A stretch of 64,000 nucleotides of DNA from Chiloscyllium plagiosum (Eukaryota), in NCBI RefSeq assembly GCF_004010195.1, contig NC_057718.1:60922073-60986072 (forward strand). The letters are read 5' to 3'. The notes under the pieces were generated by a model, which saw only the letters and a list, made by a program, of their open reading frames with translations, searched no databases and had not been told where the DNA came from. This document shows positions 455 to 63,503 of the stretch, one piece after another. Position numbers and translations under genes: made by a program. How positions within the stretch are numbered: the first letter of the stretch is position 1; each line of letters starts with the position of its first letter.

Positions 455-790
455 TGGAATCTTACAATCCCTACAGTATGGAAACAGGCCCTTCGGCCCA
501 ACAAGTCCACACCAACCCTCCAAAGGGTAACCCCCCAGACCCATTCCCCTCCCCTATTATCCTACATTTACCCCTGACTAATGCACCTAACCTACACATG
601 CCTGAGCATGGCAACATTTAGCATGGCCAATTCACCTGGACTATGGGAGGAAACCAGAGTACGCAGAGGAAACCCACACAGACACGGAGAGAATGTGCAA
701 ACTCCACACAGACAATTGCCCAAGGTTGGAATCGAACCCAGGTCCCTGGCACTGTGAGGCAGCAGTGCTAACACTGAGCCACCGTGCCGC
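455..790 (-). mobile_element. HE1-type tRNA-derived SINE, near full length
   Basis: Reverse strand reads gcggcacggtggctcagtgttagcactgctgcctcacag...GGTTCGATTCC, then the central tggccatgctaaat motif and the CR1-like tail gggccgaagggcctgtttcc; matches the copy at 30593-30915. Confidence 0.9.
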
Positions 791-2714: not shown

Positions 2715-3755
2715 AATTGACCGCCATGCGATCCTTATGGAGACAAAGTCCTGTCCTCACATCAAGGGTATAAGAAATTGTGTTTTGTGGCATAACCCAC
2801 CATGTTAAATGGAAAAGATTCTGAATGGATATATCAGCTCAAATTTGGGAAGTTTTGAGATGGTAGGAACTGTCAGCTGTATTCCACCACAATCTGATAC
2901 TGAAGCAGTCCATGTCTAAATCCAACAATATCTGGACAATATTCAGGCTTGGGGTGACAAGTGGCAAGTAACATTCATGGCATGCAACTGTCAGTTAATG
3001 ACTGTCTCCAATAAGAGATAATATAACCATTGTCCCTCAACATTTAGTGGTGTTATCATTACTGGTAACACTGGTAGTGTTACCCCACTATCCAATATCC
3101 TTGGGCTTACTATTGACCAAAAACTCAACTGGATTCACCACATAAACACAGTGGGTACAAGAGCAGGTAAGAAGCTGGGGTACAGCAGTGAGTAACTCAC
3201 CTCCTGATCCCCAAAGACTATCCACAATCTGCAAGACAAAAGACATGAGTGTAATGGAATATTCCTCACTTGCCTGGATGGGCGCAACTCCAACAACACT
3301 CAAGAAGCTTGGCACCATCTAGGACAAAGCAGCCTGCTTGATTGGCACTACATCCATAAATGTCCACTCCCTTCACGACCGATGCTCAATAGCCGCAGCA
3401 TGTACTATCTACAAGATGCAATACAGAAATTCATCAAAGATTCACAGACAGCACCTTCCAAACCGACACCCACTTCCATCTAAGGAAAAGGGCAGCAAAT
3501 ACATGGGAACGCCACCACCTACAAGTTTACCTCCAAGCCACTCACTATCCGGGATTGGAAATATATTGCAATCCCTTCACTGTCGCTGGGTCAAAACCCT
3601 GGAATTACCTCCCTAAGGGCATTGTGAGTCAACCTAAAGCAGGTGGGCTGCAGTGATTAAAGAAGGCAGCTCACCATTACCTTTTCAAGGGCAACTAGGG
3701 ACAAGCAATAACTGCTAGCCCAACCAGTGACACCTACATGCCACGAGTGAATTGT
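2715..3755 (+). mobile_element. Internally deleted copy of the second CR1-group LINE family (family B; see 51336-54403)
   Basis: 2715-2870 resembles 52320-52460; 2885-3755 is colinear with 53550-54400 and ends in gggcaactagggacaagcaataactgc. Confidence 0.85.
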
Positions 3756-4009
3756 TTAAAAATCCAGAAACGCATGGCCCAGCATATCCTTCACATCAAG
3801 TCAAAGGCCAACCCTAGTTCAAAAGAAGTGATGGAGCACATGCCAAGTACAGCACCAAATATAACGTAAACACTAGGTGCTATCCCAATGAAGCTAAAAC
3901 ACAGGGATACATGCTAAACAGTGGAAAAAGCATGCAGTGGACAGAGTTAAGTAATTGCCTAAAGAGTGAATCAAGTCAAAGCTCTGTGGTCCTGCCACCT
4001 CCAGTCATG

Positions 4010-4222
4010 AATATCAAAATTGCATGCAAGGACTGCCAGAAACACTACGTAGGACAAACAGGAAGAAAGTTAGCCACCAGGATACACGAACACCAGCTAG
4101 CCACAAAAAGACACGACCCTCTCTCCCTCGTAGCCCTACACACGGATGAAAAAATAACACCCGTTCGACTGGGACAACACATCTATCCTGGGACAGGCTA
4201 AGCAAAGACATGCCAGAGAATT
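4010..4222 (+). mobile_element. Penelope-like element GIY-YIG endonuclease fragment
   Basis: Translation KIACKDCQKHYVGQTGRKLATRIHEHQLATKRHD has the CxxC-YVG-R-EH pattern of PLE endonucleases. Confidence 0.88.
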
Positions 4223-4484
4223 ATAGATTCTGGTCTTTTATCAATTCAATTTGCACTATATGATATCAAGGAAATGCAATGGGGACAGCAAAACTCATGA
4301 CCATCACAACAGCGTGGTTGAGTACTGAAGATCAGTGCTTCAGATCTCGGTCTGCCCCTAACCGAGTTGTTCCACTACAGCTAGAACACATATCGACCTG
4401 GCTATATAGAAAATCCCCTGAGTATATTCTGTCTCAGAAAAAGCAGGTTAAATCCAATCTAGCAACTCACTGGCTGTTCTAAAG

Positions 4485-4577
4485 AAGGATCTTTGGACCT
4501 GAAATGTCATCTCAGCTTTCTCTCTACAGATGCTGCCAGACCTGCTGAGCTTCACCAACCATTTCTATTTTTAGTTC
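4485..4577 (+). mobile_element. Decayed PLE-derived terminal fragment (older family)
   Basis: Degenerate hammerhead-like ctaaagaagg...cctgaaatgtc followed by cagatgctgccagacctgctgag, a motif shared with other PLE termini in the window. Confidence 0.6.
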
Positions 4578-5325
4578 TTGCGTTTTTTTTTCCTGACAAA
4601 TCACTGCCCCATTAATCTATTCTCAATCATCAGCAAAATGATCGAAGGAATCATAGACAGTGCTATCAAATGGAACTTATTCACCAATAACCTGCTCACA
4701 ATTTATAGTTTGGGTTCTCCCAGAACAGCTGGACTCCACAGACATCATTATAGCCTAGCTCTAAACATGGACAAAGGAGTTGAATTCCAGAGATGATGTG
4801 AGAGTGGCTGCCCTTCACATTAAGACAGCATTTTAGTGAGTATGAAAATAAGCCTCATCACAATTTAGATCAATAGCAATCAAAGAAATCACTGCTGTTT
4901 GGAGTCATACAGAGCACAAAGGAAGGGTATGGTTGTAACAGGCCAAACATCCCAGCCCAAAGCATCACTGCAAGAGTTCCTCAGGATAGTCTGCTCGGAC
5001 CAACTATCTTCAGCTATTTTGTCAATTTCCTCCCTCCTTCACAAGGCCAGAAATGGGATGTTCACTAATGACTGCACAGGATTAGGCACCATTCACAATT
5101 CCTCAAATACTGAAATAGTTTGTGCTTGCATGCAGCAAGATTTGGGTAATATTCAGAGTTATGCTGAAGAGTAACAAGTAACATTTGTGTCACAAAAGTT
5201 CCAGTCAATGACAATCTCCAACAAGAGAGAATCTAACTATTGAGGCAAAAGTGAGGACTGCAGATGCTGGAGATTAGAGTCAAGGTTAGAGTGGTGCTGG
5301 TCAGGCAGCATCCGAGGAGCAGGAA

Positions 5326-5361: not shown

Positions 5362-5873
5362 GAGGCTGGAAGCCTCTGGGTTGGAGAGATAAATGGGAGG
5401 GGGTGGGGCTCGGGAGAATTTAGTTGAGAGTGCAATAGGTGTATGGAGGAAGTGGTAGATGTGATAGGTCGGAGAGGAGTGTGGAGCTGGAAGGTGGGAA
5501 GGAAGATTGACAGGTGGGACAAGTCATGAGGATGGTGCTGAGCTGGAAGGTTGGAACTGGAGTAAGATGGGGGGAGGAGAAATGAGGAAACTAGTGAAGT
5601 CCACATTGATGCCCTGGGGTTGAAAAGTTCTGAGGTGGAAGATGAAGCGTTCTTTCTCCAGGGGTCGGGTCATGAGGGAGTGGTGGTGGAGGAGGCCCAG
5701 GACCTGCATGTCCTCAGCAGAATGGAGGGGGGGAGGGCGAAGTTGAAATGTTCGGTTACGGGACGGTGAGGTTGATTGGTACGGTGTCCCGGAGATATTC
5801 CCTGAAGTGCGAGAAGGTGTCCAGTCTCCCCAGTGTAAAGGAGACCACATTGGGAGCAACGGATGCAATAAAT

Positions 5874-6158
5874 TAGTACTGCTGCCTCACAGCACCAGGG
5901 TCCCAGGTTCGATTCCAGCCTTGGGCGACTGTCCGTGTGGAGTTTGCACATTCTCCCCGTGTCTGCGGGGGTTTCCTCTGGGTGCTCCGGTTTCCTCCCA
6001 CAGTACAAAGATGTGCAGGTCAGGTGAACTGGCCAGGTTAAATTGCTCGTAGTGTTAGGTGCATTAATCAGAGGGGGGTGGGTTACTCTTCGGAGGGTCA
6101 GTGTGGATTGGTTAGGCTGAAGAGCCTGTTTCTATGCTGTAGGGAATCTAATCTAATC
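5874..6158 (+). mobile_element. HE1-type SINE nested in the PLE endonuclease gene
   Basis: B box GGTTCGATTCC and (taatc)n tail; aaat duplicated at 5870-5873 and 6159-6162; splits the NVI/YCI codons. Confidence 0.9.
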
Positions 6159-9100
6159 AAATGACATTGGTGTAAGTGCAGGTGAAACTTTGATGGATGT
6201 GGAAGATTCCTTTGGGGCCTTGGATGGAGGTGAGGGGGAGGTGTGGACACAGGTTTTGCAATTCCTGCAGTGGCAGTGGAAGGTGCCAGGAGGGGAGAGT
6301 GAGTTGTTGGGGAGGTAGACCTGACCAGGTAGTCATGGAGGAAACGGTCTTTGTGGAAAACGGATAGGGATGGGAGGGAAATATATCCCTGGTGGTGGGG
6401 TCCATTTGAGGGTGTCCATTTGTAGAATCTAACTATTGCCTCTTGATGCTTAATGGTATTCTCATCACTGAAAACACTATAATCAATAACTTCGTATTAA
6501 TCAGACCAACCATGCGGACAGTGTGAGCAGCTCAAATACAAGGAGGACAGGTACCTCTTTTCTGGACTCATAAAAGTTGGTCTACCATGTACAAAGCACA
6601 AGTCAGGAATGTGGTGAAATACTCTTCACTTGCTATCTACAACCATGAACATTCACTCCTTCTAACACATTCCTGTGTACAATGGCAGCAGCGTGTATCT
6701 TCTACAAGATGCATCGCAGCAAGCGACTGAGGTGTTTTCAATAGCACCTTCCAAATCCATGCTTTCTGATAACTACAAGGTCAACGGCAGCAGATCGTTC
6801 TGCTAGAACACCATCTTCATGTCCCCCTTTAAGTCACACACCATCCTGACTTGGAAGTCTATCACTGTTTCCTCACTATTACTGAGTTGACATCCTGTAC
6901 CTTCTTTCAACAACACACCGTAGTTGTATTTAAACCGAAGGGCCTACCCAGTTCAAGAATGGGGCTCACCACCACCACTGAGCAAGCAGTGCTCAGTAAA
7001 TGCTGGCCTTGCCGCTGGCACACAGCCAATTAACAAATACAAAAGTGATGCCTTGCATTATCTCCTCTAACAGGATCGTGGGCATGGAAACGGTGATCAG
7101 GATAGAGTGAGACAATTGGAATGGGGCCAGTGATGGTCTGCTGTGGAACAGGGAGGAGCAATTGTCCACCCCCAGCTCCCCAGAAATGTTTATTAAAATA
7201 ATATATTCAAAGAATAAGCCTAAAATGGCCCCACAAATTTAGCAATGATTGCAAAGTTTTGGTATCCAGTATCATACTGTTAAATTAACTTGCCTTTTAC
7301 CTACAACATAGTTCAATGCATATCAATTTCTGGTACAAATTATTTACAATCACGAGCACTTGAATCAGAATGAAATAGCAATTCCATCTCTTTAGTTTGC
7401 TTCTTTTGTACTGCAGTGCATATTGCAGTGGCTAGCTGTCTTTGAACATAGAAAAGCTACTGTCATCTGTGACCCATCACATTCCTAGTCATGTTATGCA
7501 TGACACTATAGCACTGTGTTAATTACCCACTGAAGATAAGCCATCAGTTTGATCTGTCATAGGTTTACTGATTACAGACCTGACCTGTCTGGCTGAGTTA
7601 GCATGCAAAGGTTATGGTTCTCCAGACATGAGTTCAAGGGCACAATATGTTACAAGTTCCTGAACAGATTCTGGTCTATTTGGAACAAAAGGACATAGGT
7701 TATGATCAGGGCAAATGGAGCAACAATAAATCTGTGTCAGAAATTAATACGTTTTAACATAATAGGCATTGGATGTCCACTGATGGATCATTCACTTAAT
7801 GAGACTGCCTTGTATTTTGAGGTCATTTAATGACCATAAATTAGTCTTCCATATGCCCAGCTTTACAATGTGAGGTTGATCTACCTATTATCATTTTAAT
7901 AAACAAAATGATCTACAATAAATTACATTAATTACTGAATTATGAAATAATGTTTAGTTTTCAAACAATTTTAATTTGATATGTCTTTTTCATGTTTTAC
8001 TTGGTCTTAATTCAATATTCTCAAAAGATATTGTTTGGCAGCGGTTAAAAAAACCTGCAGAATTCAAAAAGATTTGGCATTCAAATAAACTTTGACTGCA
8101 AGTGGAGCTTAAATCATGAGGCAATGGGAGGAATGTTCCTCAGAGCTCCATTCTTTCTGCCATTCTATCTCACCAGATGTGCCAGGGAAATCCCATTTAT
8201 GACATACATCCATCAGCAAGGAAGCAGCTCTGAAGAATTTCCTGACAATATTTCCTTAAATAAACACTCAACCAAGGATGTACGTTGTTTAATTTTATGT
8301 TAGTAGCTCTGAGGTTATTTAACCATGTTGTCCTATTTATAGCTTATATTACAGTTCAATCAGTTAGTTCCCTTCTTCAGCCTGATTGAACAACCTTTCT
8401 ATGATCTTTACAATAACATTGCTTTGAGAGCTTAATAGAAGCCACAATATGATGGTGGGTGTTTCACACAGAATGACTTTTATATACAGTGGTTTTCTGT
8501 TAATGAGCAAGCCATAAACAATGTGTTAAGTAAGAAAGACTAACATGTCAAAGAATGTTGTAATACCAGTTAGTGTGATAAAGTTTTTCATGGTTGGTTA
8601 ACTTAAATGTGCTCAGAAATGTAAATAGTGCTTAAATATCAGATGTTAATATAAATAGAGCACCTGACCCATGAAAAACACAGTTTAATCCATGGTGATT
8701 TTCAATGGAGCCTTTGTAAGTCGATAAATTTCCTCATGAGACAATTTATTTTTCTTGCAAGTGTGGGCTCGTACCTTATCTGTCACTACTAACTGCTTCT
8801 GATGGCTCAGGATAGCACAATGCATGTGGCCAAAAACAGTTCCACTTCTCAATAACAATCTTTTCTGAACAACAATGAAGCATATCAGTGTCAGCCAAAC
8901 CCCTGGTCAGTAAGGTTGGGGTAGATGGAAAGGAATTTTGAAAAGAAAATAGAGAAGTTAAAAATATGGAGAAAGTTGCAGGTTGATTCCACTTTTCCAA
9001 TCCTTCGGCTGCGTTAGAACAACACTGGACCTTATCAGACTGCTGTAAATTGGCAGCCATGTTTTCACTGCTCAATTGCACTATTGTAAAGTTGACAAAG

Positions 9101-23200: not shown

Positions 23201-23471
23201 TTTAATATTGCCAGTGCCCTTCCTATATTTCTCAATACATCTCACATTTACAATCCCTCCTCTTAAAAACTCTACCCTCTGTCCTTAAAAAATTACATCA
23301 CATCCCAATCCTTCCTTTCTCCTCAAAATCACATTAAATACCCATAGCAATCTGTTCCTAACTCCATGTTTGAATCCTGCAACATTTTCCTGCCTAACTT
23401 AAACATACAAGCAGTGCTACAAATGACATTGATGGTAGTGATCATGTTATGTTTATCTTAATCTCCACTTT

Positions 23472-23848
23472 ATTCATTCATGGGATGAGGACATCACTGG
23501 CTAGGGCAGCATTTATTGCCCATCCCTAATTACTATGTTGCTGTGGCTCTACAGTCAGACCAGTAAAGATTAGAGGCAAAAAAACTGCAGATCTGAAGAA
23601 ACGTTGAATTCTCCAACTCCTGATGCTGCCTGGCTTGCTGCATTACATCAATAAAGATGGCAGTTTCCCTCCCTAAAGAACATGAGTGAACCAAATGATT
23701 TTCCATCAATTCATGGTCATCATTAGAATTTTAATTCCAGTGAATTTAAATTCCACTATCTGCTGTGGCAGCACTTGAGCTTATATCCCCCTGCACATTA
23801 CCTGGGATCACTGGATTAACAGTCCAGTGATAATACCATTAGGCCACC
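23472..23848 (-). mobile_element. tRNA-headed SINE sharing head and tail with the family B LINE
   Basis: Reverse strand reads ggtggcctaatggtattatcactggactgttaatccag...gaccatgaa...ggttcactcatg...gagccacagcaa, joined to aattagggatgggcaataaatgc...atgaatgaat. Confidence 0.85.
23571..23651. mobile_element. Small PLE-derived insertion nested in the SINE
   Basis: aaaactgcagat followed by inverted ctgaagaaacgttg...gatgctgcctggcttgctg; 7 bp TSD taaagat at 23564-23570 and 23652-23658. Confidence 0.65.
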
Positions 23849-24654
23849 AATTCTTTGTGGCTTTTGTCAGAGTTATTCACATCAGCTTTCTTCAGTCTGC
23901 CCTCCATAGTGTCAGTTTAGTGGAATTTAGCGCCACTATTAGCAATCCAAAAGTAGTCAGAAGATCTCCAACAATAGTTTCGTTCCCCTCCCCAACCTTG
24001 TTACCTCTGGAGTCCTATAAAGGCCTATCCTTAGCTTAATTTACATGCTATATATTGGCAATGTCATTTGAAGAGGTGAGATTCAATGTCCACAAACAAT
24101 CATTGTGAGATTAATAGCAGAGGTCAGACAACCATAGAGATCAATTAAGCAAGGGCTCAGGGGATTCCGTCTTCTAATGGCGACCTTGATTCTTAGCCAA
24201 GCCTCATCATATATTCTTGACTGACAGACGGACGAAGCACTCACCCGGTGAAACAGTTGTACAGCTGCTTGATTGACAGCTCTGGCTGATGATCACTGTC
24301 AGTTTCGCAATGTTCAAATGCTCCATCGTCCCCCTCCTTTTTAGTGAGTAAAGTGAGTGAGCACCAAAAGAGCAAGTGAACAGCTCTGAAATGTAACCTG
24401 GTCCAGTCTGTAAGCTGTATGCAAAGTATCCCTGCAGCAACATTGCAATGAGAGGTACACTCCAAAGTGCAACATGGCAGCCTGGAAGTGTTGTGTAAGT
24501 GGCTCAGAGATGGGGTGTGAGGGCATGGAGAGTCTGGCACCTGCCTGATGTGGAGACATGGAATGTGTGCAGCTGCTGTCCTGAGGCCCCTTCCAGGATG
24601 GCAGCCTGGAGGAAGAAGCGGCAAGCTGGAATCGCCGGGTTAATATAAACGAAA

Positions 24655-25246: not shown

Positions 25247-25700
25247 GGGCAGCACAGTGGCTCAGTGGTTAGCACTGTTGCCTCACAGTGCCAGGGAACT
25301 AGGTTTGATTCCAGTCCCGGGGAACTGTCTGTGTGGAGCTTGCAAATTCTTCTTTGTATGCTTCCTCCTGGTACTCTGGTTTCCTCACACAGTCCTGAAG
25401 AAGGACTCATGCCCGAAACGTCGATTCTCCTGCTTCTTGGATGCTGCTTGACCTGCTGCGCTTTTCCAGCAACACATTTTCAGCTCTGATCTCCAGCATC
25501 TGCAGTCCTCACTTTCTCCTTCCTCACACAGTCCACAGGTTAGTTAGCAGAGTAGGTGAATTGGCCATGCTAAATTGCCATGTAGTGTCCAGCAATGTAT
25601 AGGCTGGGTGGGTTAACCACAGTAAGTATGCTCTTCAGAAGGTTGGTGCAGACTCAATGAGCCAAGTGGCTTCTATCTGCACTTTATGGGTCCTATGAGA
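25247..25700 (+). mobile_element. HE1-type SINE, interrupted by a PLE mini-insertion
   Basis: A box TGGCTCAGTGG, ttggccatgctaaattgcc core, decayed tail. Confidence 0.88.
25396..25519 (+). mobile_element. PLE mini-insertion beginning at a hammerhead core
   Basis: (c)TGAAGAaggactcatgcccGAAACGTCgatt...gtcctcactttctcc; perfect 15 bp TSD ttcctcacacagtcc at 25381-25395 and 25520-25534. Confidence 0.9.
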
Positions 25701-30592: not shown

Positions 30593-30915
30593 TGGTGGGC
30601 GGCATGGTGGCACAGTGGTTAGCACTGCTGCCTCACAGCGTCTGAGACCCGGGTTCAATTCCCGCCTCAGGCGACTGACTGTGTGGAGTTTGCACGTTCT
30701 CCCCGTGTCTGCGTGGGTTTCCTCCGGGTGCTCCGGTTTCCTCCCACAGTCCAAAAAAGATGTGCAGGGTCAGGTGAATTGGCCATGCTAAATTGCCCGT
30801 AGTGTTAGGTAAGGGGTAAATGTAGGGGTATGGGTGGGTTTCGCTTCGGCGGGTCGGTGTGGACTTGTTGGGCCGAAGGGCCTGTTTCCACACTGTAATG
30901 TAATCTAATCTAATC
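30593..30915 (+). mobile_element. Young full-length HE1-type SINE
   Basis: A box TGGCACAGTGG at 30608-30618; B box GGTTCAATTCC at 30652-30662; CpGs retained; (taatc)n tail; TSD tacct at 30588-30592 and 30916-30920. Confidence 0.95.
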
Positions 30916-31084
30916 TACCTAGTCATTTGGTAAGTGCCTGGTATGTGATTAAGATTTATTCAATCCTAAGGGTTCAAAGTAGTATAGTAACTGATGGTAA
31001 GGTTAATAATATGCATAAAAGGTCAGTAATTATATAATTAAATAAAATAATTCTGTAGCTAACTGAGACACATTAAGGATGACT

Positions 31085-35310: not shown

Positions 35311-35589
35311 TCAAAGTTTGTGAGAAGATTTGTAGCTTGGATACTCGTTGTTGTAGTTCTGTTCGTCGAGCTGGGAATTTGTGTTGCAGACATTTCGTCC
35401 CCTGTCTAGGTGATATCCTCAGTGTTTGGGAGCCTCTTGTGAAGCGCTTCTGTGATGTTTCCTCCGGAGGAGCAAATGCCAGAGGAAACACCACAGAATC
35501 GCTTCACAGGAGGCTCCCAAGGATGTCACCTAGACAGGGGACGAAACGTCTGCAACACAAATTCCCAGCTCGGCGAACAGAACCACAAC
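35311..35589. mobile_element. PLE-derived fold-back insertion inside CR1 ORF2, with hammerhead motif
   Basis: Inverted arms around 35470; reverse-strand motif CTGAGGAtatcacctagacaggggacGAAATGTC at ~35385-35425; 12 bp TSD with 1 mismatch at 35299-35310 and 35590-35601. Confidence 0.85.
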
Positions 35590-44754: not shown

Positions 44755-45076
44755 GGTAGCACTGCTGCGTCACAGCACCAGGTACCTAGGTTAGATTCTA
44801 GCCTCAGGTGACTTCTGTGTGGAGTTTGCACATTCACCCCGTATCTGGCTGGGTTTCCTCTGGGTGCTCTGGTTTCTTCCTACAGTCCAAAGATGAGCAG
44901 GTTAGGGTGGATTGGCCATGCTAAATTGCCCATTGTGTCCAGGGATGCGCAGGCCAGATGGGTTAGCCACGGGAAATGTAGGGTTACAGGGGTGGGGTGG
45001 GTTTGGGTGGGATGTTCTTTGGAGGGTTGGTGTGGGCTGAATGGCCTGCTTCCACACTGCAGGAACTCTGTGATTC
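44755..45076 (+). mobile_element. HE1-type SINE
   Basis: tagcactgctgc...ttggccatgctaaattgccc...gcctgcttccacactg. Confidence 0.88.
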
Positions 45077-48759: not shown

Positions 48760-49570
48760 ATGTTCTACTGCATGAGTCACAAACATTAGTGGGGAGGTAC
48801 AGCACTTGATTACGAAGGCCAAAGTTACCTTTTATTATGAAAGGAATTGAACATTTATATGGGGTATTGGTGAGACCACATCTCCAAACTGTATGCACTT
48901 TTGGGGGAAAGTGAGGACTGCAGATGCTGGAGATCAGAGCTGAAAATGTGCTGCTGGAAAAGCTCAGCAGGTCAGGCAGCATCCAAGGAGCAGGGCATGA
49001 GCCCTTCTTCAGCGTGTATGCACTTTTGGTCATCTTATTTAAGAAAATATCTCTATGACTCTATAAAATATGTGAAAGTATCAGAGGTGGTTCAAAGGAG
49101 GTTTACTAGATTGATATGTGGAATGGGTGGGTTGTCTTGCGAGAAAAGATTGGAAAGGTAGTCTCGTTTTCCCTCGAGTTTAAAAGAGCAAGAGGGGATT
49201 TGATTAGAGATTGCAAGATCGCAAGTGGCCTTGACAAGGCGGATTATCGAGAGGATAGTTATTATTGTGGCTTAATCTAAAATAGGGAATGCTGTTTCCC
49301 TGGAGGTTGCCAGTTTAGGACAGAGATGACAGGATTTTATTTCCTCTCTTGGAGGATTATGTGACTTTAGAAATTCCTGCCTCTTAAAGCAATGGAGGTG
49401 GTGTTATTGAATAGTTTTATGCTACAGGTAGATAATCTCTCAGTAGATGAGGGAATGAAAGAGTATTGGGAATAGATGGGAATGCAGAATTTTGGACACA
49501 ACCAAATCAGTCATGGTTTTATTGAATATGGAGTAGACCATTCAGTCAAGGATTCCTGATTTAAATGTTT
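48760..49570 (+). mobile_element. Old CR1 3' fragment, interrupted
   Basis: Translation EVVQRRFTRLICGMGGLSCEKRLER and a CR1-type 3' UTR. Confidence 0.8.
48905..49014 (-). mobile_element. PLE mini-insertion beginning at a hammerhead core (internal deletion)
   Basis: Reverse strand cgCTGAAGAagggctcatgccc...gtcctcactttccc; perfect 15 bp TSD tgtatgcacttttgg at 48890-48904 and 49015-49029. Confidence 0.88.
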
Positions 49571-50770: not shown

Positions 50771-51335
50771 TTGACCGGCAATTTCTGGCGGTTTGCAACT
50801 CAAATATTTCTTCCTAACCACACAGTGTTGGGTTTTCGCATGCCATCGTGACTTGCAAACATTATTGTTCTCACTGTTATTTTAACAGCAAATGTTCAAT
50901 GTTTCTTTTTTATTTGTACTTTCAGTATTGATCACATAATGGGCTGCACCGTACATGCGGGTGTATTGGTCCAGTGAAATAGTCAATTGCAAACCAACCA
51001 ATGTTTAACTAGCAACCTGCCCTGTTGCCCTGAGCACGATACTACACTGGAACAGCCTTAACAAGGTGAACACAGGAACCTGCCATTCAAGAAAAAGGTC
51101 TGCCCCTGAAAGCAGCTGAGTGATCCTAGCAGTGTATGAAATAAGTAGTGTCTATTGGCAGGAAATAGTCAAGAATCCCCAGAAAGAAATGTCATGTGTG
51201 CTGGACTCAGTTAAGTCAGGCAATCATTCGGCAGAGAGGCTTAAGTTACTGCAATAGCTCCCAGTGCAATCAACTTCATGCTTCAATCGGCCTCTGTTTT
51301 CCCTGTCTGTACATTCTTCCTTACTGGAAGTCGAA

Positions 51336-54300
51336 GTCCTAGTGGTATTAACACTGGACTATTAATCCAGAGATCTGGGTAATCTTCTGGAGACCTGGGT
51401 TCGAATCCCACCATGGCAGATGGTGCAATTGAAAATCTGCAATCACAAATCTACTGATGACCATGAAATCATTGTTGATTATCGGGAAAACCCATCTGGC
51501 TCACTAATGCCTTCAAGGAAGGAAATCTCCAATCCTCACCTGGTCTGGCCTATATGTGACTCCAGACTCACAGTAATGTGGTTGACTCTTAATTGCCATC
51601 TGAAATAGCTGAGCAAGCCATTCAGTTGCACTGATTGCTACAAAGTCTCAAGCAAATGAAACCAGCCAGATCACCTGGTATCAACTTAGGCACCAGGAAA
51701 GATCACCGCAGAAACAGCCTGTCGACCCTGCAAAGTCCTCCTTTCTAACAGTTGAGGGCTAGTGCCAAAATTAGGAGAGCTATCTCACAGACTAGTCAAG
51801 CACAGTCTGACATGCTGACAGAATCATACCTTACAATATTCCGGAAACCACCATCACCATCCCTGGATATGTCCAGTCCCACTGGCAGGACAGACCTGGC
51901 AGACGTGGCAGCACAGTGGTATACAGTGGTGGAAGCGTTGCACTGGGAGTCCTCAACATTTGACTCCAGGCAACATGAAGTCTCATGGCTTCAGGTTAAA
52001 CATGGGCAGGGAAACTTCCTGCTGATATCACAGGCCATCCTCCCTTAGCTGATGAATCAATACTCCTCCATATTGAACAACGCTTGGAGGAAGCACTGAG
52101 GATGGCAAGGGTACAAAATGTACTCTGGGTGGGGAATTTCAATATCCACCAAGTGTGGCTCAGCAGCAGTTCTACTGATCAAGCTATTTGGTCTTAAAGG
52201 ACGTATCTGCTTGGCTGGGTCTGTGGCAGGTGATGAGGCAACCAAAAAGAGGGAAAAATATGCTTGACCTCACCCGTACCAATCTGCTGATGCAGCTGTC
52301 CATGACAGTATGAGTGAGAGTGACCACCACACAGTCCTTTTGGAGACAAAGTCTCACCTTCACATTGAGAATAACCTCCATTGTGTTGTGTGGCATTATC
52401 ACTGTCCTAATGGAACATACTGCGAACCGATTTAGCAACTCAAGACTGGGCATCCGTGAGGTTTTGTGGGCCATCAACAGCAGCTGAACTGTACTTCAGT
52501 GCAATCTGTAACCTCATGGCCCTGCATTCCTCCACTCAACCATTACCATCAAGCCAGGAGATCAACCCTGGTTCAATGGAGAATTCAGGAGGGCATGTCA
52601 GGAGCAGTACCTAAAGGAGACATACCTGAAGATGAGGTGTCAACCTGGTGAAGTCACCAGACAGGACTACCTCCATGCCAAACAACCAAGAGCATCAAGT
52701 GATAGAGATCCCACAATCAATGGATTCGATCTAAGCTCTGCAGTCCATCCACATCTAGTTGTGAATAGTGGCAAATGATTAAACAACTCACTGGAGGAGT
52801 GAGTACCCAGTGGTCCCCAGCATTATAGACACCAGTCTTCAGTCAATTTGATTCACTCGACATGATATCAAGCATCAATTATAGACACTAGTCACTGTAA
52901 AGACTATGGGCCCTAACAACATTCTGGCAATCGTACTGAAGACTTGTGCCCCAGAACTTGCCACTCACCTAGGCAAACTGTTCCAGTACAGTTACAACAC
53001 TGCATCTGCCTGACAATGTGGAAAAATGCCCAGGTATGTCTTGTACATAAAAAACAGAACAAACCCAACCTGGCCAATTATTGTTCCATCAGTCTACTCT
53101 CGATCATCAGGAAAGTGATGGAAGGTGTCATCGATAGTGCTATCAAGCAGCACCTGCTCAGCAATAACCTGCTCAGTGATGCCCAGTTTGGGTTCTGCCA
53201 GGGCCATTCAGCTCCTGATATCATTCCAGCCTTGGTTCAAACAGGGACAGAAGAGCAAAATTCAAGAGGTGAGGTGACATCAAGGCTGCATTCAACCAAG
53301 TGTGGCATCAAGGAGCCCTAGCAAGACTGGAATCAGTAGGTATCGGGGGCATTCGCCGGTGGTTGGAATCATACCTGCCATATAGGCAGTGGTTGTTGGA
53401 GGTCAGTCATCTCAGCTCCAGGACATCTCTACAGGAGTTCTTCAGTGTCGTGTCCTAGGCCCAACCATCTTCAGCTGCTTCATCAATGACCTTCCCTCCA
53501 TTATCATATCACAAATGAGGTTGTTAGCTGATGGCTGCACCATGTTCAGCACCATTCGTGACTCCTCAGATACTGAAGCAGTCCATGTCCAAATGCAACA
53601 AGATATGGACAATACCCAAGCTTGAGCTGACAAGTGGCAAGTAACATGTATGCCACACAAATGCCAGACTATGATCATCACCAATAAGAGACAATCTAAT
53701 CACCGCTCCTTGACATTCAATCGTGTTACCATTTCTGAATCCCCCACTATCAACATCCTGGGGGTTATCATTGATCATAAACTCAACTGGACTCACCACG
53801 TAAACATGGTGTCTACAAGAGCAGGTCAGAAGTAGGAATACTGTGGTAACTCACTTCCTGACTCCTCAACGTCTGTCCACCACCTACAAGGCACAAGTCA
53901 GGAGTGTGAGGGAGTACTCCCCACTCGCCTGGATGAGTGCAGCCCCAACAAAACTCAAGAAGCTTGACACCAAGACAAAGCAGCCCGCTTGATTGGCACC
54001 ACATTCACAAGCATCTACTCCTTCCACCACCAATGCTCAGTAGCAGCAGTGTATACATTCTACAAGATACACTGCAGAAATTCACCAAAGATCCTCAGGC
54101 AGCCCCTTCCAAACCCACAACCACTTCCATCTAGAAGTACAAGAGCAGCAGCTTTACAAGAACACTACTACTTTAAATTTCCCCTCCAAGACACTCATCA
54201 ACCTCACTTGGAAATATATGTCCATTCCTTCACTGACGCTGGATCAAAACCCTGGAATTCCCTCCCTAAGGCCATTGTAGGTCAACCCACAATAGTGGAC

Positions 54301-54403
54301 TGCAGCAATTCAAGATGTCAGCTCAGCATCACCTTCTCAAGAGCAATTAGGGATGGGCAATAAATGCTGACTCAGCAAGGATGCCCACAAACAATGAAAA
54401 ATA
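51336..54403 (+). mobile_element. tRNA-headed CR1-group LINE (family B), single decayed EN-RT ORF, no ORF1
   Basis: A-box-like gtcctagtgg at 51336-51345; B box GGTTCGAATCC at 51398-51408; APE motifs from ~51733 (KVLLSN, LTESYL, IPGY, GNFN, SDH); RT motifs NYCSISLLSII, QFGFCQG, VLGPTIFSCFINDL, LADG. Confidence 0.85.
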
Positions 54404-54549
54404 ATTTTTTAAATATTGTACCCCTTTCTCTGACAGTGATAACCCATGAATAGTTCATTTTCATCTCTCAGAACCATTCCAACGACCTCAACATAGCAGA
54501 AAGGTTCAATAGCAACTTATGAACTTTCTACAAGACCTGTAAGTCCTAA

Positions 54550-56050
54550 CTGTCTACAGCACAGAAAAAGGCCCCTTGGCCCCGAGTCTATGTCTTGGAA
54601 TCACAAATGTATATCTAAGTAAATGTTATGAGTGTTACTTCCCCTACCACCCTTCCATGCAGTGAGTTATAGATTCACACCACCCTCGAGGTGAAAAAAA
54701 AAACAAATTTCCCACATCTCTTTCAACCTCCTGCCCATCCCTTCAATCTATGTCCCAGGTCACTGGTCCTTCTACCAAGGGGAAAGGATTTTTCCCATCT
54801 ATGCCACTCATAATTTTATACCTCTCAATCATGTCCCCCTCAGACTCCTCTGCTTCAAGGAAAACAACTCCAATCTGTCCAATCTTTCTTCAAAACTAAA
54901 ACTCCAATAAAGCAACATTCTGGTAAATCTCCCGTGGACTCTCTTCAGTGCAGTTACATCCATTCTATAATGTGGAGTCCAGAACTGCTCACAATTCTTA
55001 GCTGTAGCCTACCAAGCACTTTACATTGTTCTAGCATCACTGCACTTGTCTTAAACTCTATGCTTCGGCAAGCATCCTCTATGCGTTCTTATTTACCTAT
55101 CTGTCTGTGTACCTTAAAGGACCTGTGCAAGTGCACACCAAGGTCCCTCTGATCTTCAGTGCTTTCCAGGCATGAGAATCCAACAGTTCATCATGGAATC
55201 TCATGCCTTGTTTGTCCTGCTCAATTGTGTCACCTCATATTTATGCGGATTGAATTTTATTTGTCACTGAATATCTGATCTGACCAGCCCATCAATATCC
55301 TTCTGTAACCTAAGGTTATCTTCCTCACTATTTACCACCCCACCAACTTTTATATCATCTGCGAACTTATAAACCAACCTGCCTACATTCAAATCTAACT
55401 TGTTTATACATACCACAAACAGCTAGGGGCCATAACACTGATCCCTGTAGAACTCCATTGCACACAGGTTTCCAAACATATAAACATAACTTTGACCATC
55501 ATCCCTTACTACCTCTTATTCAGCCAATTCTTACTTCAATTTGCCAAATGTGTTTGGATCCCATGGGATCTTACTTTCATAACCAGTCTCCCATTCAGGA
55601 CCTCACCGACAGCCTTGCAGAAGTTTTAGGAGACCTCATCCAAAGCATTTCCCTCATCTACACACCTGGTTACCTCTTTGAAAACTTCAATCAAGTTTGT
55701 CAGATAGGACCTCTCCTTAACAAAACCATGTAGACCAGTCTTGATCAATCCCTGCCTTTCCAAGTGCAGATTAATTCTGCCCCTTGGAATTGTAACAATA
55801 ATTTCCCCATCACAGAGTTGAGATACTGACCTGTACTTTCTTGGTTAATCTCTTGCTCCCTTCTTGAAAAACAGTATCACATTGGCTGCCCCCCCCTGTC
55901 CTCTGGCACCTCTCCTGTGGCCAGAGAGGAATTGAAAACTATTGTCAGTGACACTGCTAGTTCCTCCTTTGCCTCACTCAATGGGATACATTTCATCTGG
56001 CCCTGGAAATTTATCTACTCTTTAAGTCTTCCAGACTACTCTGAACCTCC
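54550..56050 (-). mobile_element. Decayed CR1 RT/3' fragment
   Basis: Reverse complement is colinear with the CR1 copies at 11100-12600 and 43150-44650. Confidence 0.85.
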
Positions 56051-58204: not shown

Positions 58205-58800
58205 GGCACTGGAAATTAGAAATTGCTGGGAAAATCTCCACAGGTACGGCAGCATCTGTGGAGACAAGGTAGGTAAAAACAACGACTGCAGATGCTGGAA
58301 ACCAGATTCTGGATTAGTGGTGCTGGAAGAGCACAGCAGTTCAGGCAGCACTGCTCCTCGGATGCTGCCTGAACTGCTGTGTTCTTCCAGCACCACTAAT
58401 CCAGAATCTGTGGAGAGAAGGCAGACTTAACGTTTCATGCCCAGAGCACTTTCTTCCATGTCCTTACCCCAAACCCCACACACCAGGCCTTGTCATCACA
58501 TGGTTTCCTATCCCAAACAGCCCATTATCAGCCACTAACCATCCCCATTAGCAGCTATTCATTATCCCAAGGTGGCCTTTACCCACTCAGTTGTCTGCTT
58601 AATTGTTTTTCTCTCTCTCTGGACTCCATTTCTACCTATTGTTTACTTATTCCCCCTTTCCCCTTCCCCACTCCCATCTTCAACATACATTTTCCTAGCT
58701 ACAATCAGTTTGATGGATCACTGGACCCAAAACACTAACTCTGCTTTCTATCTGCAGATGCTGCCTGACCTGCTGAGTTTTACCAGCAATTTCTGATCTT
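58205..58800. mobile_element. Older PLE-derived fold-back element
   Basis: Left arm gaaattgctggg...gcagcatctg and right arm cagatgctgcctgacctgctgagttttaccagcaatttc flank a pyrimidine-rich PLE 3' region. Confidence 0.7.
58270..58405. mobile_element. Younger PLE-derived hairpin insertion nested in the older one
   Basis: 48 bp inverted arms 58303-58350 and 58363-58410 with 1 mismatch; 16 bp TSD with 1 mismatch at 58254-58269 and 58406-58421. Confidence 0.85.
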
Positions 58801-63034: not shown

Positions 63035-63466
63035 TAAAATTACATCAGTAGTTACAATTGCTACATACTGTGTCACAATAAATTAATGTTTTGTATGGAA
63101 TATTTAGTTGCATATTGTATGTTAAATTAATGTATATTGTATAATAAGTACAATTGCTTATTGTACATTAAGGTATTGTTATCTTGCAAGTTAGGTCCAG
63201 TTATTATAACACAGAGTAATAACATTTCAGTCTCACAGACTAGTGTGTGGTCAAATATGGTGAGTGATACTGTCACATGGAAATCATGTTCAGAGCATTG
63301 CTTCACATTATCTGGCGATCCGGCATGGCACCCTCTCCACTTGGTATGGCACTGTCTCAGCCTGGTGTGGTAATCTCTTGAGGAGAAAGTGAGGTCTGCA
63401 GATGCTGGAGATCAGAGATGGAAATGTGTTGCTGGAAAAGCGCAGCAGGTCAGGCAGCATCTAGGA

Positions 63467-63503
63467 GAATCGACGTTTCGGGCATTAGCCCTTCTTCAGG
63501 AAT
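63467..63503 (-). ncRNA. Minimal type I hammerhead ribozyme, intact core
   Basis: Reverse strand attc CTGAAGA a gggc taat gccc GAA ACGT C gatt: palindromic loopless stem III, GUC cleavage triplet. Confidence 0.8.

Follow-up and report, generated by a model that had tools for sequence, protein, structure and literature searches.

A multicopy short element sharing a tRNA-like head and a 3' tail with an elasmobranch Zenon LINE, and its likely origin by internal deletion

The two elements in the window

The window is a 64,000-nt stretch of the Chiloscyllium plagiosum genome (NC_057718.1, positions 60,922,073 to 60,986,072 of the forward strand). It contains a decayed short element on the minus strand and a full-length, broken LINE on the plus strand. 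Overall, the short copy combines counterparts of the 5' ~257 nt and of the final 60 nt of the LINE, which spans 3.08 kb at 51326-54404. The features of the two elements are as follows.

23469..23855, minus strand: short element, decayed copy of a tRNA-headed, probably Zenon-derived SINE; family length likely ~340 nt
23765..23855, minus strand: short-copy head, tRNA-like, with an A box at 23846-23836, an anticodon-like stem-loop at 23827-23811 and, at 23780-23772, a decayed B box
23652..23764, minus strand: body of the short copy, homologous to the Zenon 5' UTR at ~51419-51539
23571..23651, minus strand: secondary insertion of 81 nt, another shark repeat, with a 7-nt direct repeat on both sides (23658-23652 and 23570-23564)
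23532..23563, minus strand: final 5' UTR-homologous piece, aligned with 51540-51582 with an 11-nt gap; junction to the tail at 23532/23531
23469..23531, minus strand: Zenon-derived 3' tail, with stem-loop and A-rich end
51326..54404, plus strand: full-length, broken Zenon LINE; CR1 group, no ORF1; 5' end matches published consensuses by eye
51326..51418, plus strand: LINE head, tRNA-like, with an A box at ~51335-51345, a stem-loop at 51354-51370 and, at 51398-51408, an intact B box
51419..51655, plus strand: remaining LINE 5' UTR, with the short-form family breakpoint (~51602) inside it
51656..54340, plus strand: single coding region for APE endonuclease and reverse transcriptase, with many stops and frameshifts
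54342..54404, plus strand: LINE 3' tail, common to the short form; stem-loop, then A-rich end

Judged by its closest relatives, the long element is an elasmobranch Zenon LINE, a type that is already known. It was compared with the first 400 nt of each published consensus, by eye and with motif searches, and over that length the nearest one by eye is RhiTyp_Zenon-1. We take the prefixes CarCar, HypSab, RhiTyp, ScyCan and SquAca to denote white shark, Atlantic stingray, whale shark, catshark and spiny dogfish. The supplement of Stuart et al. 2026 holds ten Zenon consensuses, seven of them elasmobranch and drawn from five species (PMC13343379). With these elasmobranch Zenons the long element shares the head, the UTR and the ATG region (first 400 nt, by eye) as well as the lack of an ORF1; at 3.08 kb, the window copy is shorter than most of their consensuses (2.9-3.3 kb; PMC13343379).

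The reverse transcriptase piece of the LINE is 66-72% identical to whale shark proteins (top two hits), versus 24-46% to the CR1 pieces in the window. Four close protein hits (P0003, P0004, P0008 and P0011; 10 of 150 hits examined) show 54-72% identity; these and P0034 come from sharks (Rhincodon, Cetorhinus, Pristiophorus, Heterodontus). Full-length protein relatives cover the LINE from the endonuclease to near the tail, and the RVT_1 pieces are spread over three frames. A word-indexed protein search returned two distant reverse transcriptases only. The first endonuclease motif lies at ~51735, ~410 nt from the 5' end (weak, z 2.6), followed by a second at 51844 (z 8.1); the position of the first leaves no room for an ORF1. 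At the 3' end there is a short, decayed A-rich stretch (54393-54404) without a long poly-A.

The ATG at 51656 lies 79 nt upstream of the first endonuclease motif and is out of frame in the window copy. The same ATG is out of frame in the HypSab consensus (80 nt, by eye) and appears in frame in the shorter SquAca-2. It is kept in the consensuses of all five species, and in the window copy and HypSab it opens a short overlapping uORF (51656-51760 in the window).

Older Zenon material is also present, in the form of a Zenon inside a Zenon at 2718-5236 (plus strand). The older copy (2718-2849 and 3761-5236) is collinear with the middle of the LINE and is interrupted by a 5'-truncated, better conserved copy at 2893-3740 in the same orientation. 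In the Heterodontus FERM-domain protein model P0034 the first ~130 residues are Zenon reverse transcriptase, which probably reflects either an error of gene prediction or exonisation of Zenon sequence.

The short copy aligns with both ends of this LINE. By blastn, 23843-23656 (minus strand) matches 51338-51534 at 70% over 202 columns (E 2e-22), and in a global alignment of head plus body 151 of 198 paired bases are identical. Two post-head segments, 23770-23661 and 23730-23646, score 92 and 65, whereas 200 shuffles of each reach at most 35 and 33, so the match to the LINE is more than tRNA-generic; identity runs more than 150 nt beyond the tRNA-like head. The piece next to the junction (23571-23532 versus 51533-51582) has 28 of 39 paired bases identical, with the 11-nt gap, and is weak on its own, its score being reached by 37 of 2000 shuffles. 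In the tail, 50 of 60 bases are identical between 23531-23470 and 54345-54404, and blastn gives 80% for 23534-23470 versus 54342-54404; the tail also resembles those at 3679-3738, 15943-15885 and 32889-32831.

The initial annotation had described the short element as the first ~240 bp of the LINE followed by a jump straight to its last ~60 bp. The first extent holds, at ~257 nt, while both elements begin ~10 nt further upstream than it had placed them: the true starts are ~23855 and ~51326 for the short and the long element (loose-end consensus, run X16). The LINE tail is likewise shared, but the jump is not straight, since the 81-nt insertion intervenes and 23 nt of the family junction are missing.

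Relatives of the 81-nt insertion lie at 25415-25459, 63442-63479, 48965-48990 and 58757-58775. Its source is the family of a palindromic repeat at 58303-58410, which has 48-nt arms that are 98% complementary and related pieces at 25415-25459, 48965-48990, 58757-58788 and 63442-63479. The A box of the short copy is intact and its B box decayed (letters read directly), and the anticodon-like hairpin of its head appears in the fold. With its decayed B box, later insertion and small deletions, the copy at 23855-23469 is, to judge from its letters, dead. There is no convincing target-site duplication around this old copy or around the long one.

The head as a family trait and the short form as a family

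The LINE head comprises an A box, a hairpin (5-bp stem, 7-nt loop), a ~21-nt insertion and an intact B box. The Rfam tRNA model aligns over its whole length (positions 1-71) with 51336-51418, although the score is weak (20.4 bits, E 0.079; gathering score 29); the same model gave no match to the short copy, and ARAGORN called no tRNAs in the window. Loose ends in X16 put the common 5' end ~10 nt upstream of the A box, with A/T-rich sequence preceding it. Stem-loops are predicted in the tails of the short copy (z -0.95, not significant against shuffles) and the LINE (z -1.64), and the heads and tails fold no better than shuffles (z -0.8 to -1.6).

All seven elasmobranch Zenon consensuses open with the same tRNA-like head, 5' UTR and ATG region (first 400 nt, by eye). 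Searched in the first 400 nt of each row of the supplement, two UTR motifs occur in exactly seven rows, all elasmobranch Zenons, and two B-box 10-mers in six rows, all within those seven. The B-box 10-mer and both UTR motifs are absent from the first 400 nt of the three remaining consensuses, from hagfish and coelacanth. The presence of the head in seven consensuses indicates that its link to the ORF is a family trait and not a local accident, and this agrees with the family-level differences found at 51633-51653, between breakpoint and ORF, in 52-71 contigs of X1. Butterfly Persaeus carries a Zenon 5' end with no Pol III promoter (PMC6740152); together with the headless hagfish and coelacanth Zenons, this suggests that the LINE gained its head. 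The donor was probably a tRNA or a SINE, and the gain probably predates the split between sharks and rays. The main text of Stuart et al. contains the word 'tRNA' 0 times and 'SINE' once, and no mention of the head or of a short derivative was found there (PMC13343379).

To characterize the junction we compared four of 24 sequencing runs with 51200-54550 at 80% likeness; the organisms (n=3) had been picked for containing near-identical sequence. The best 15 of 18,051 joints all link 51567-51602 to 54341-54347. Summed over these 15, the joint is found in at least 217, 134 and 303 contigs of X1, X9 and X16 (organisms A, B and C), which are counts of contigs and not of copies. Letters between the two sides of the best 15 joints are mostly variants of 51593-51602, which for these 15 points to a single breakpoint at ~51602/54342 and gives the family a length of close to 340 nt; further junction types may occur among the other joints. 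The short form makes up a multicopy family. The junction of the window copy itself runs from 51582 to 54345, 23 nt of the family junction being gone. The initial annotation had proposed mapping the junction, with any microhomology, across many copies; in the runs the microhomology amounts to an overlap of 0-2 letters, with none extended (best 15 of 18,051 joints). In RNA run X21, 11 reads cover the best 15 joints; this is a poly-A single-cell library, in which read-through or priming at the A-rich tail is equally possible.

A further piece at 25813-25729 (minus strand) matches 86 nt of the Zenon UTR at 65% and spans the breakpoint (51544-51628). It may be a copy of great age that extends beyond 51602.

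Several other candidates were considered. An HDV-like ribozyme in the UTR was rejected, the loop of the candidate stem being too short and no Rfam ribozyme matching. Head and tail patterns gave no matches in viral contigs, and no loci of the relative P0039 were confirmed there. The one match of the head pattern to a metagenome contig (L001) has flanks unlike the element and is a chance match. A long inverted repeat at 35350-35589, with 70-nt and 42-nt arms that are 90-94% complementary, lies in a region of changing CR1 orientation and gives a spurious match to a miRNA family.

Order of events and promoter use

The evidence on direction consists of six diagnostic sites, read by eye, in one decayed short copy. 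These sites set RhiTyp_Zenon-1 apart from the other species where the published consensuses can be aligned (by eye). Three lie in the head (near 51339, 51350 and 51363) and three downstream (near 51454, 51515 and 51537). At every one of the six, the long copy agrees with RhiTyp. The short copy agrees with RhiTyp at 3 of 3 head sites and with the other species at 3 of 3 downstream sites. One older downstream state recurs in the loose-end consensus of all four runs, at 51532. The six sites would nest the short copy inside the whale-shark-type Zenon lineage, which favours deletion, and the simplest reading of its mosaic of states is that it branched midway from the RhiTyp-type lineage by deletion.

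We infer that derivation from the LINE by deletion is the likelier direction. The initial annotation had left a choice between deletion of the ORF and fusion of the LINE to a SINE, with a direction that could not be read from the window; the two-ended sharing on which it built stands, and the data from outside the window favour deletion. Two events probably occurred in turn, an old capture of a tRNA head by the LINE and a later deletion giving the short form. Counting against deletion are the lack of extended microhomology and of a target-site duplication, and a tRNA match below the Rfam threshold. In addition, the derived sites are all in the head and the older ones all downstream, so that an exchange of heads by template switching would look alike.

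According to the proposed mechanism, the LINE 5' end would be a tRNA-derived head with A and B boxes that was acquired before the divergence of sharks and rays. One internal deletion in the whale-shark-type Zenon lineage, removing 51603-54341 and leaving ~340 nt, would have produced the short family. The short form would be transcribed by RNA polymerase III from the inherited internal boxes, the Zenon endonuclease/reverse transcriptase would recognise the shared 3' stem-loop in trans, and insertion would proceed by target-primed reverse transcription. The short element probably works as a SINE, with Pol III use and mobilisation by Zenon; the SINE-LINE biology underlying such mobilisation has been described (PMC5786205, PMC10886601).

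The opposite order is rather unlikely in our estimate. Here a tRNA-SINE that already combined this body with a Zenon tail would have come first, and by template switching Zenon would have acquired the 5' part of that SINE to serve as a 5' UTR. The continuation, to which we give the same low credence, is that heads have since been swapped between SINE and LINE and that the present short form descends from the donor and is no deletion product. Since the head is missing from non-elasmobranch Zenons (PMC6740152), a tRNA or a SINE must have supplied it to the LINE at some point; the derived sites are concentrated in the head, the joint is free of microhomology, and module exchange among SINEs is well documented (PMC5499810, PMC7245038). 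On the other hand, the lineage-specific head states common to the short copy and the local Zenon would need repeated exchange, and conservation of 51603 to ~51630 in all seven consensuses means that the breakpoint is no visible module border in the LINE.

The short form could also be a Pol II-transcribed, internally deleted element like Persaeus, in which the tRNA-like head has no function left and the conserved body of the UTR contains the promoter. LINE 5' UTRs do carry Pol II promoters (PMC5786205, PMC6740152), and across species the UTR body is more conserved than the head (by eye). We nevertheless consider this reading improbable, given that the A-box core and the B box are kept in six of seven consensuses while the sequence between the boxes varies, and that the 5' end is located at the tRNA-like +1. 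That the short form is no family at all, but just one LINE copy that suffered a local deletion, or a SINE and a LINE that lie side by side by chance, is refuted for the family and extremely improbable as a whole: the window has one headed short copy and its exact junction (51582 to 54345) is absent from the best 15 of 18,051 joints, but the head-to-tail joint occurs in hundreds of contigs from three organisms and the head-to-ORF link in seven independent consensuses, so a local deletion could still hold only for the extra 23-nt loss of the window copy.

Pol III use, proposed above for the short form, might extend to its parent. We put forward tentatively, and with more doubt than conviction, that Zenon in sharks and rays is an autonomous LINE which Pol III transcribes from a tRNA-derived promoter within the element, and whose translation dispenses with a cap and with an in-frame AUG close by. 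Hints in this direction are the B box in six of the seven consensuses (five species) and the 5' end at the tRNA-like +1. Runs of at least four T on the sense strand number two in 3075 nt of the full LINE copy, with none of five or more, and one of the two (52464) is private to the window copy. For comparison, there are 25 such runs in 4953 nt of six CR1 stretches taken from the ORF list, and 8 in 2733 nt of four older Zenon fragments. The observed number is low against base shuffles (7.1 ± 2.5 expected) and not significantly so against dinucleotide shuffles (3.4 expected, P 0.30); depletion of T runs in the LINE is equivocal.

Relation to known elements and meaning

Lepidopteran Zenons repeatedly produce deletion derivatives (Wang et al. 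2019, PMC6740152). The Persaeus SIDE among them likewise is short (263-386 bp) and multicopy and combines the 5' and 3' ends of a Zenon LINE (PMC6740152). It differs from the shark element in three respects: it is described as having no tRNA homology or Pol III promoter, whereas the shark element has A and B boxes; it keeps the start and end of the ORF with a variable middle, whereas the shark element has a clean joint without ORF remnant; and it has a 5-bp direct repeat at its breakpoints, whereas the shark joints overlap by 0-2 nt (best 15 of 18,051) (PMC6740152).

The bipartite RTE/Vingi SINEs Bov-tA, AfroSINE and CoeSINE4 are built alike, from a tRNA head, a LINE 5' UTR and a LINE 3' end (Kojima 2018, PMC5786205). 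In these, however, the head joins an already deleted LINE, while the shark head is part of an autonomous LINE, and the contributing clades are RTE and Vingi only, while the shark LINE belongs to the CR1 group (PMC5786205). The same source notes tRNA-like sequence in a LINE once, for RTE-1_DAn and relatives (PMC5786205). ZenoSINE (PMC6685494) and the bivalve CR1-Zenon-tail SINEs (PMC11481361) are also mobilised via a Zenon-derived tail, but are described as having the tail alone in common with Zenon.

Two shark SINEs have been described: SacSINE1, a Deu-SINE that shares only its tail with an L2 (PMC5499810), and HE1, a V-SINE; both are tRNA-headed and of similar size to the short element (PMC5499810, PMC10468316, PMC4824008). 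Identity with SacSINE1 or another Deu-SINE was dropped, the body being unlike the published Deu and Meta domains by eye (5 Deu rows); SacSINE1 itself was set apart by its descriptions. A 14-nt Deu motif with up to three mismatches has nine matches in the window (10.9 expected), none of them in 23469-23855 or 51326-51655. A second SINE family served as a control within the window.

5873-6160, plus strand: second SINE family
462-771, minus strand: second SINE family
30619-30937, plus strand: second SINE family
44757-45069, plus strand: second SINE family

This family, which we take to be HE1 or HE1-like, matches a CR1 copy only in a 46-nt tail piece, and none of its 14 non-self blastn hits falls in the short or the long element. 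The contrast drawn at the outset by the initial annotation, that HE1 shares only a tail with CR1, is thereby borne out.

LINEs generally use Pol II, and SINEs consist of a small-RNA head joined to a LINE tail; a tRNA-like promoter is as a rule confined to such short parasitic elements. Where SINE bodies come from is an open question (PMC5786205). In the open literature we found no description of the tRNA-like head of Zenon or of the two-ended SINE, which may be catalogued in Repbase, Dfam or subscription papers, all outside the search. In practice, shark repeat annotation will confuse the short SINE with 5' and 3' fragments of Zenon. With head, body and tail all in one autonomous LINE, a complete SINE may arise by one deletion, and the clade concerned, the CR1 group, is not among the contributors of SINE bodies in Kojima's survey (PMC5786205). 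Zenon offers a clean test of Pol III as the polymerase of a protein-coding retrotransposon 3 kb long. If it does, Zenon would in effect be an enzyme-carrying SINE that sheds ordinary SINEs by simple deletion.
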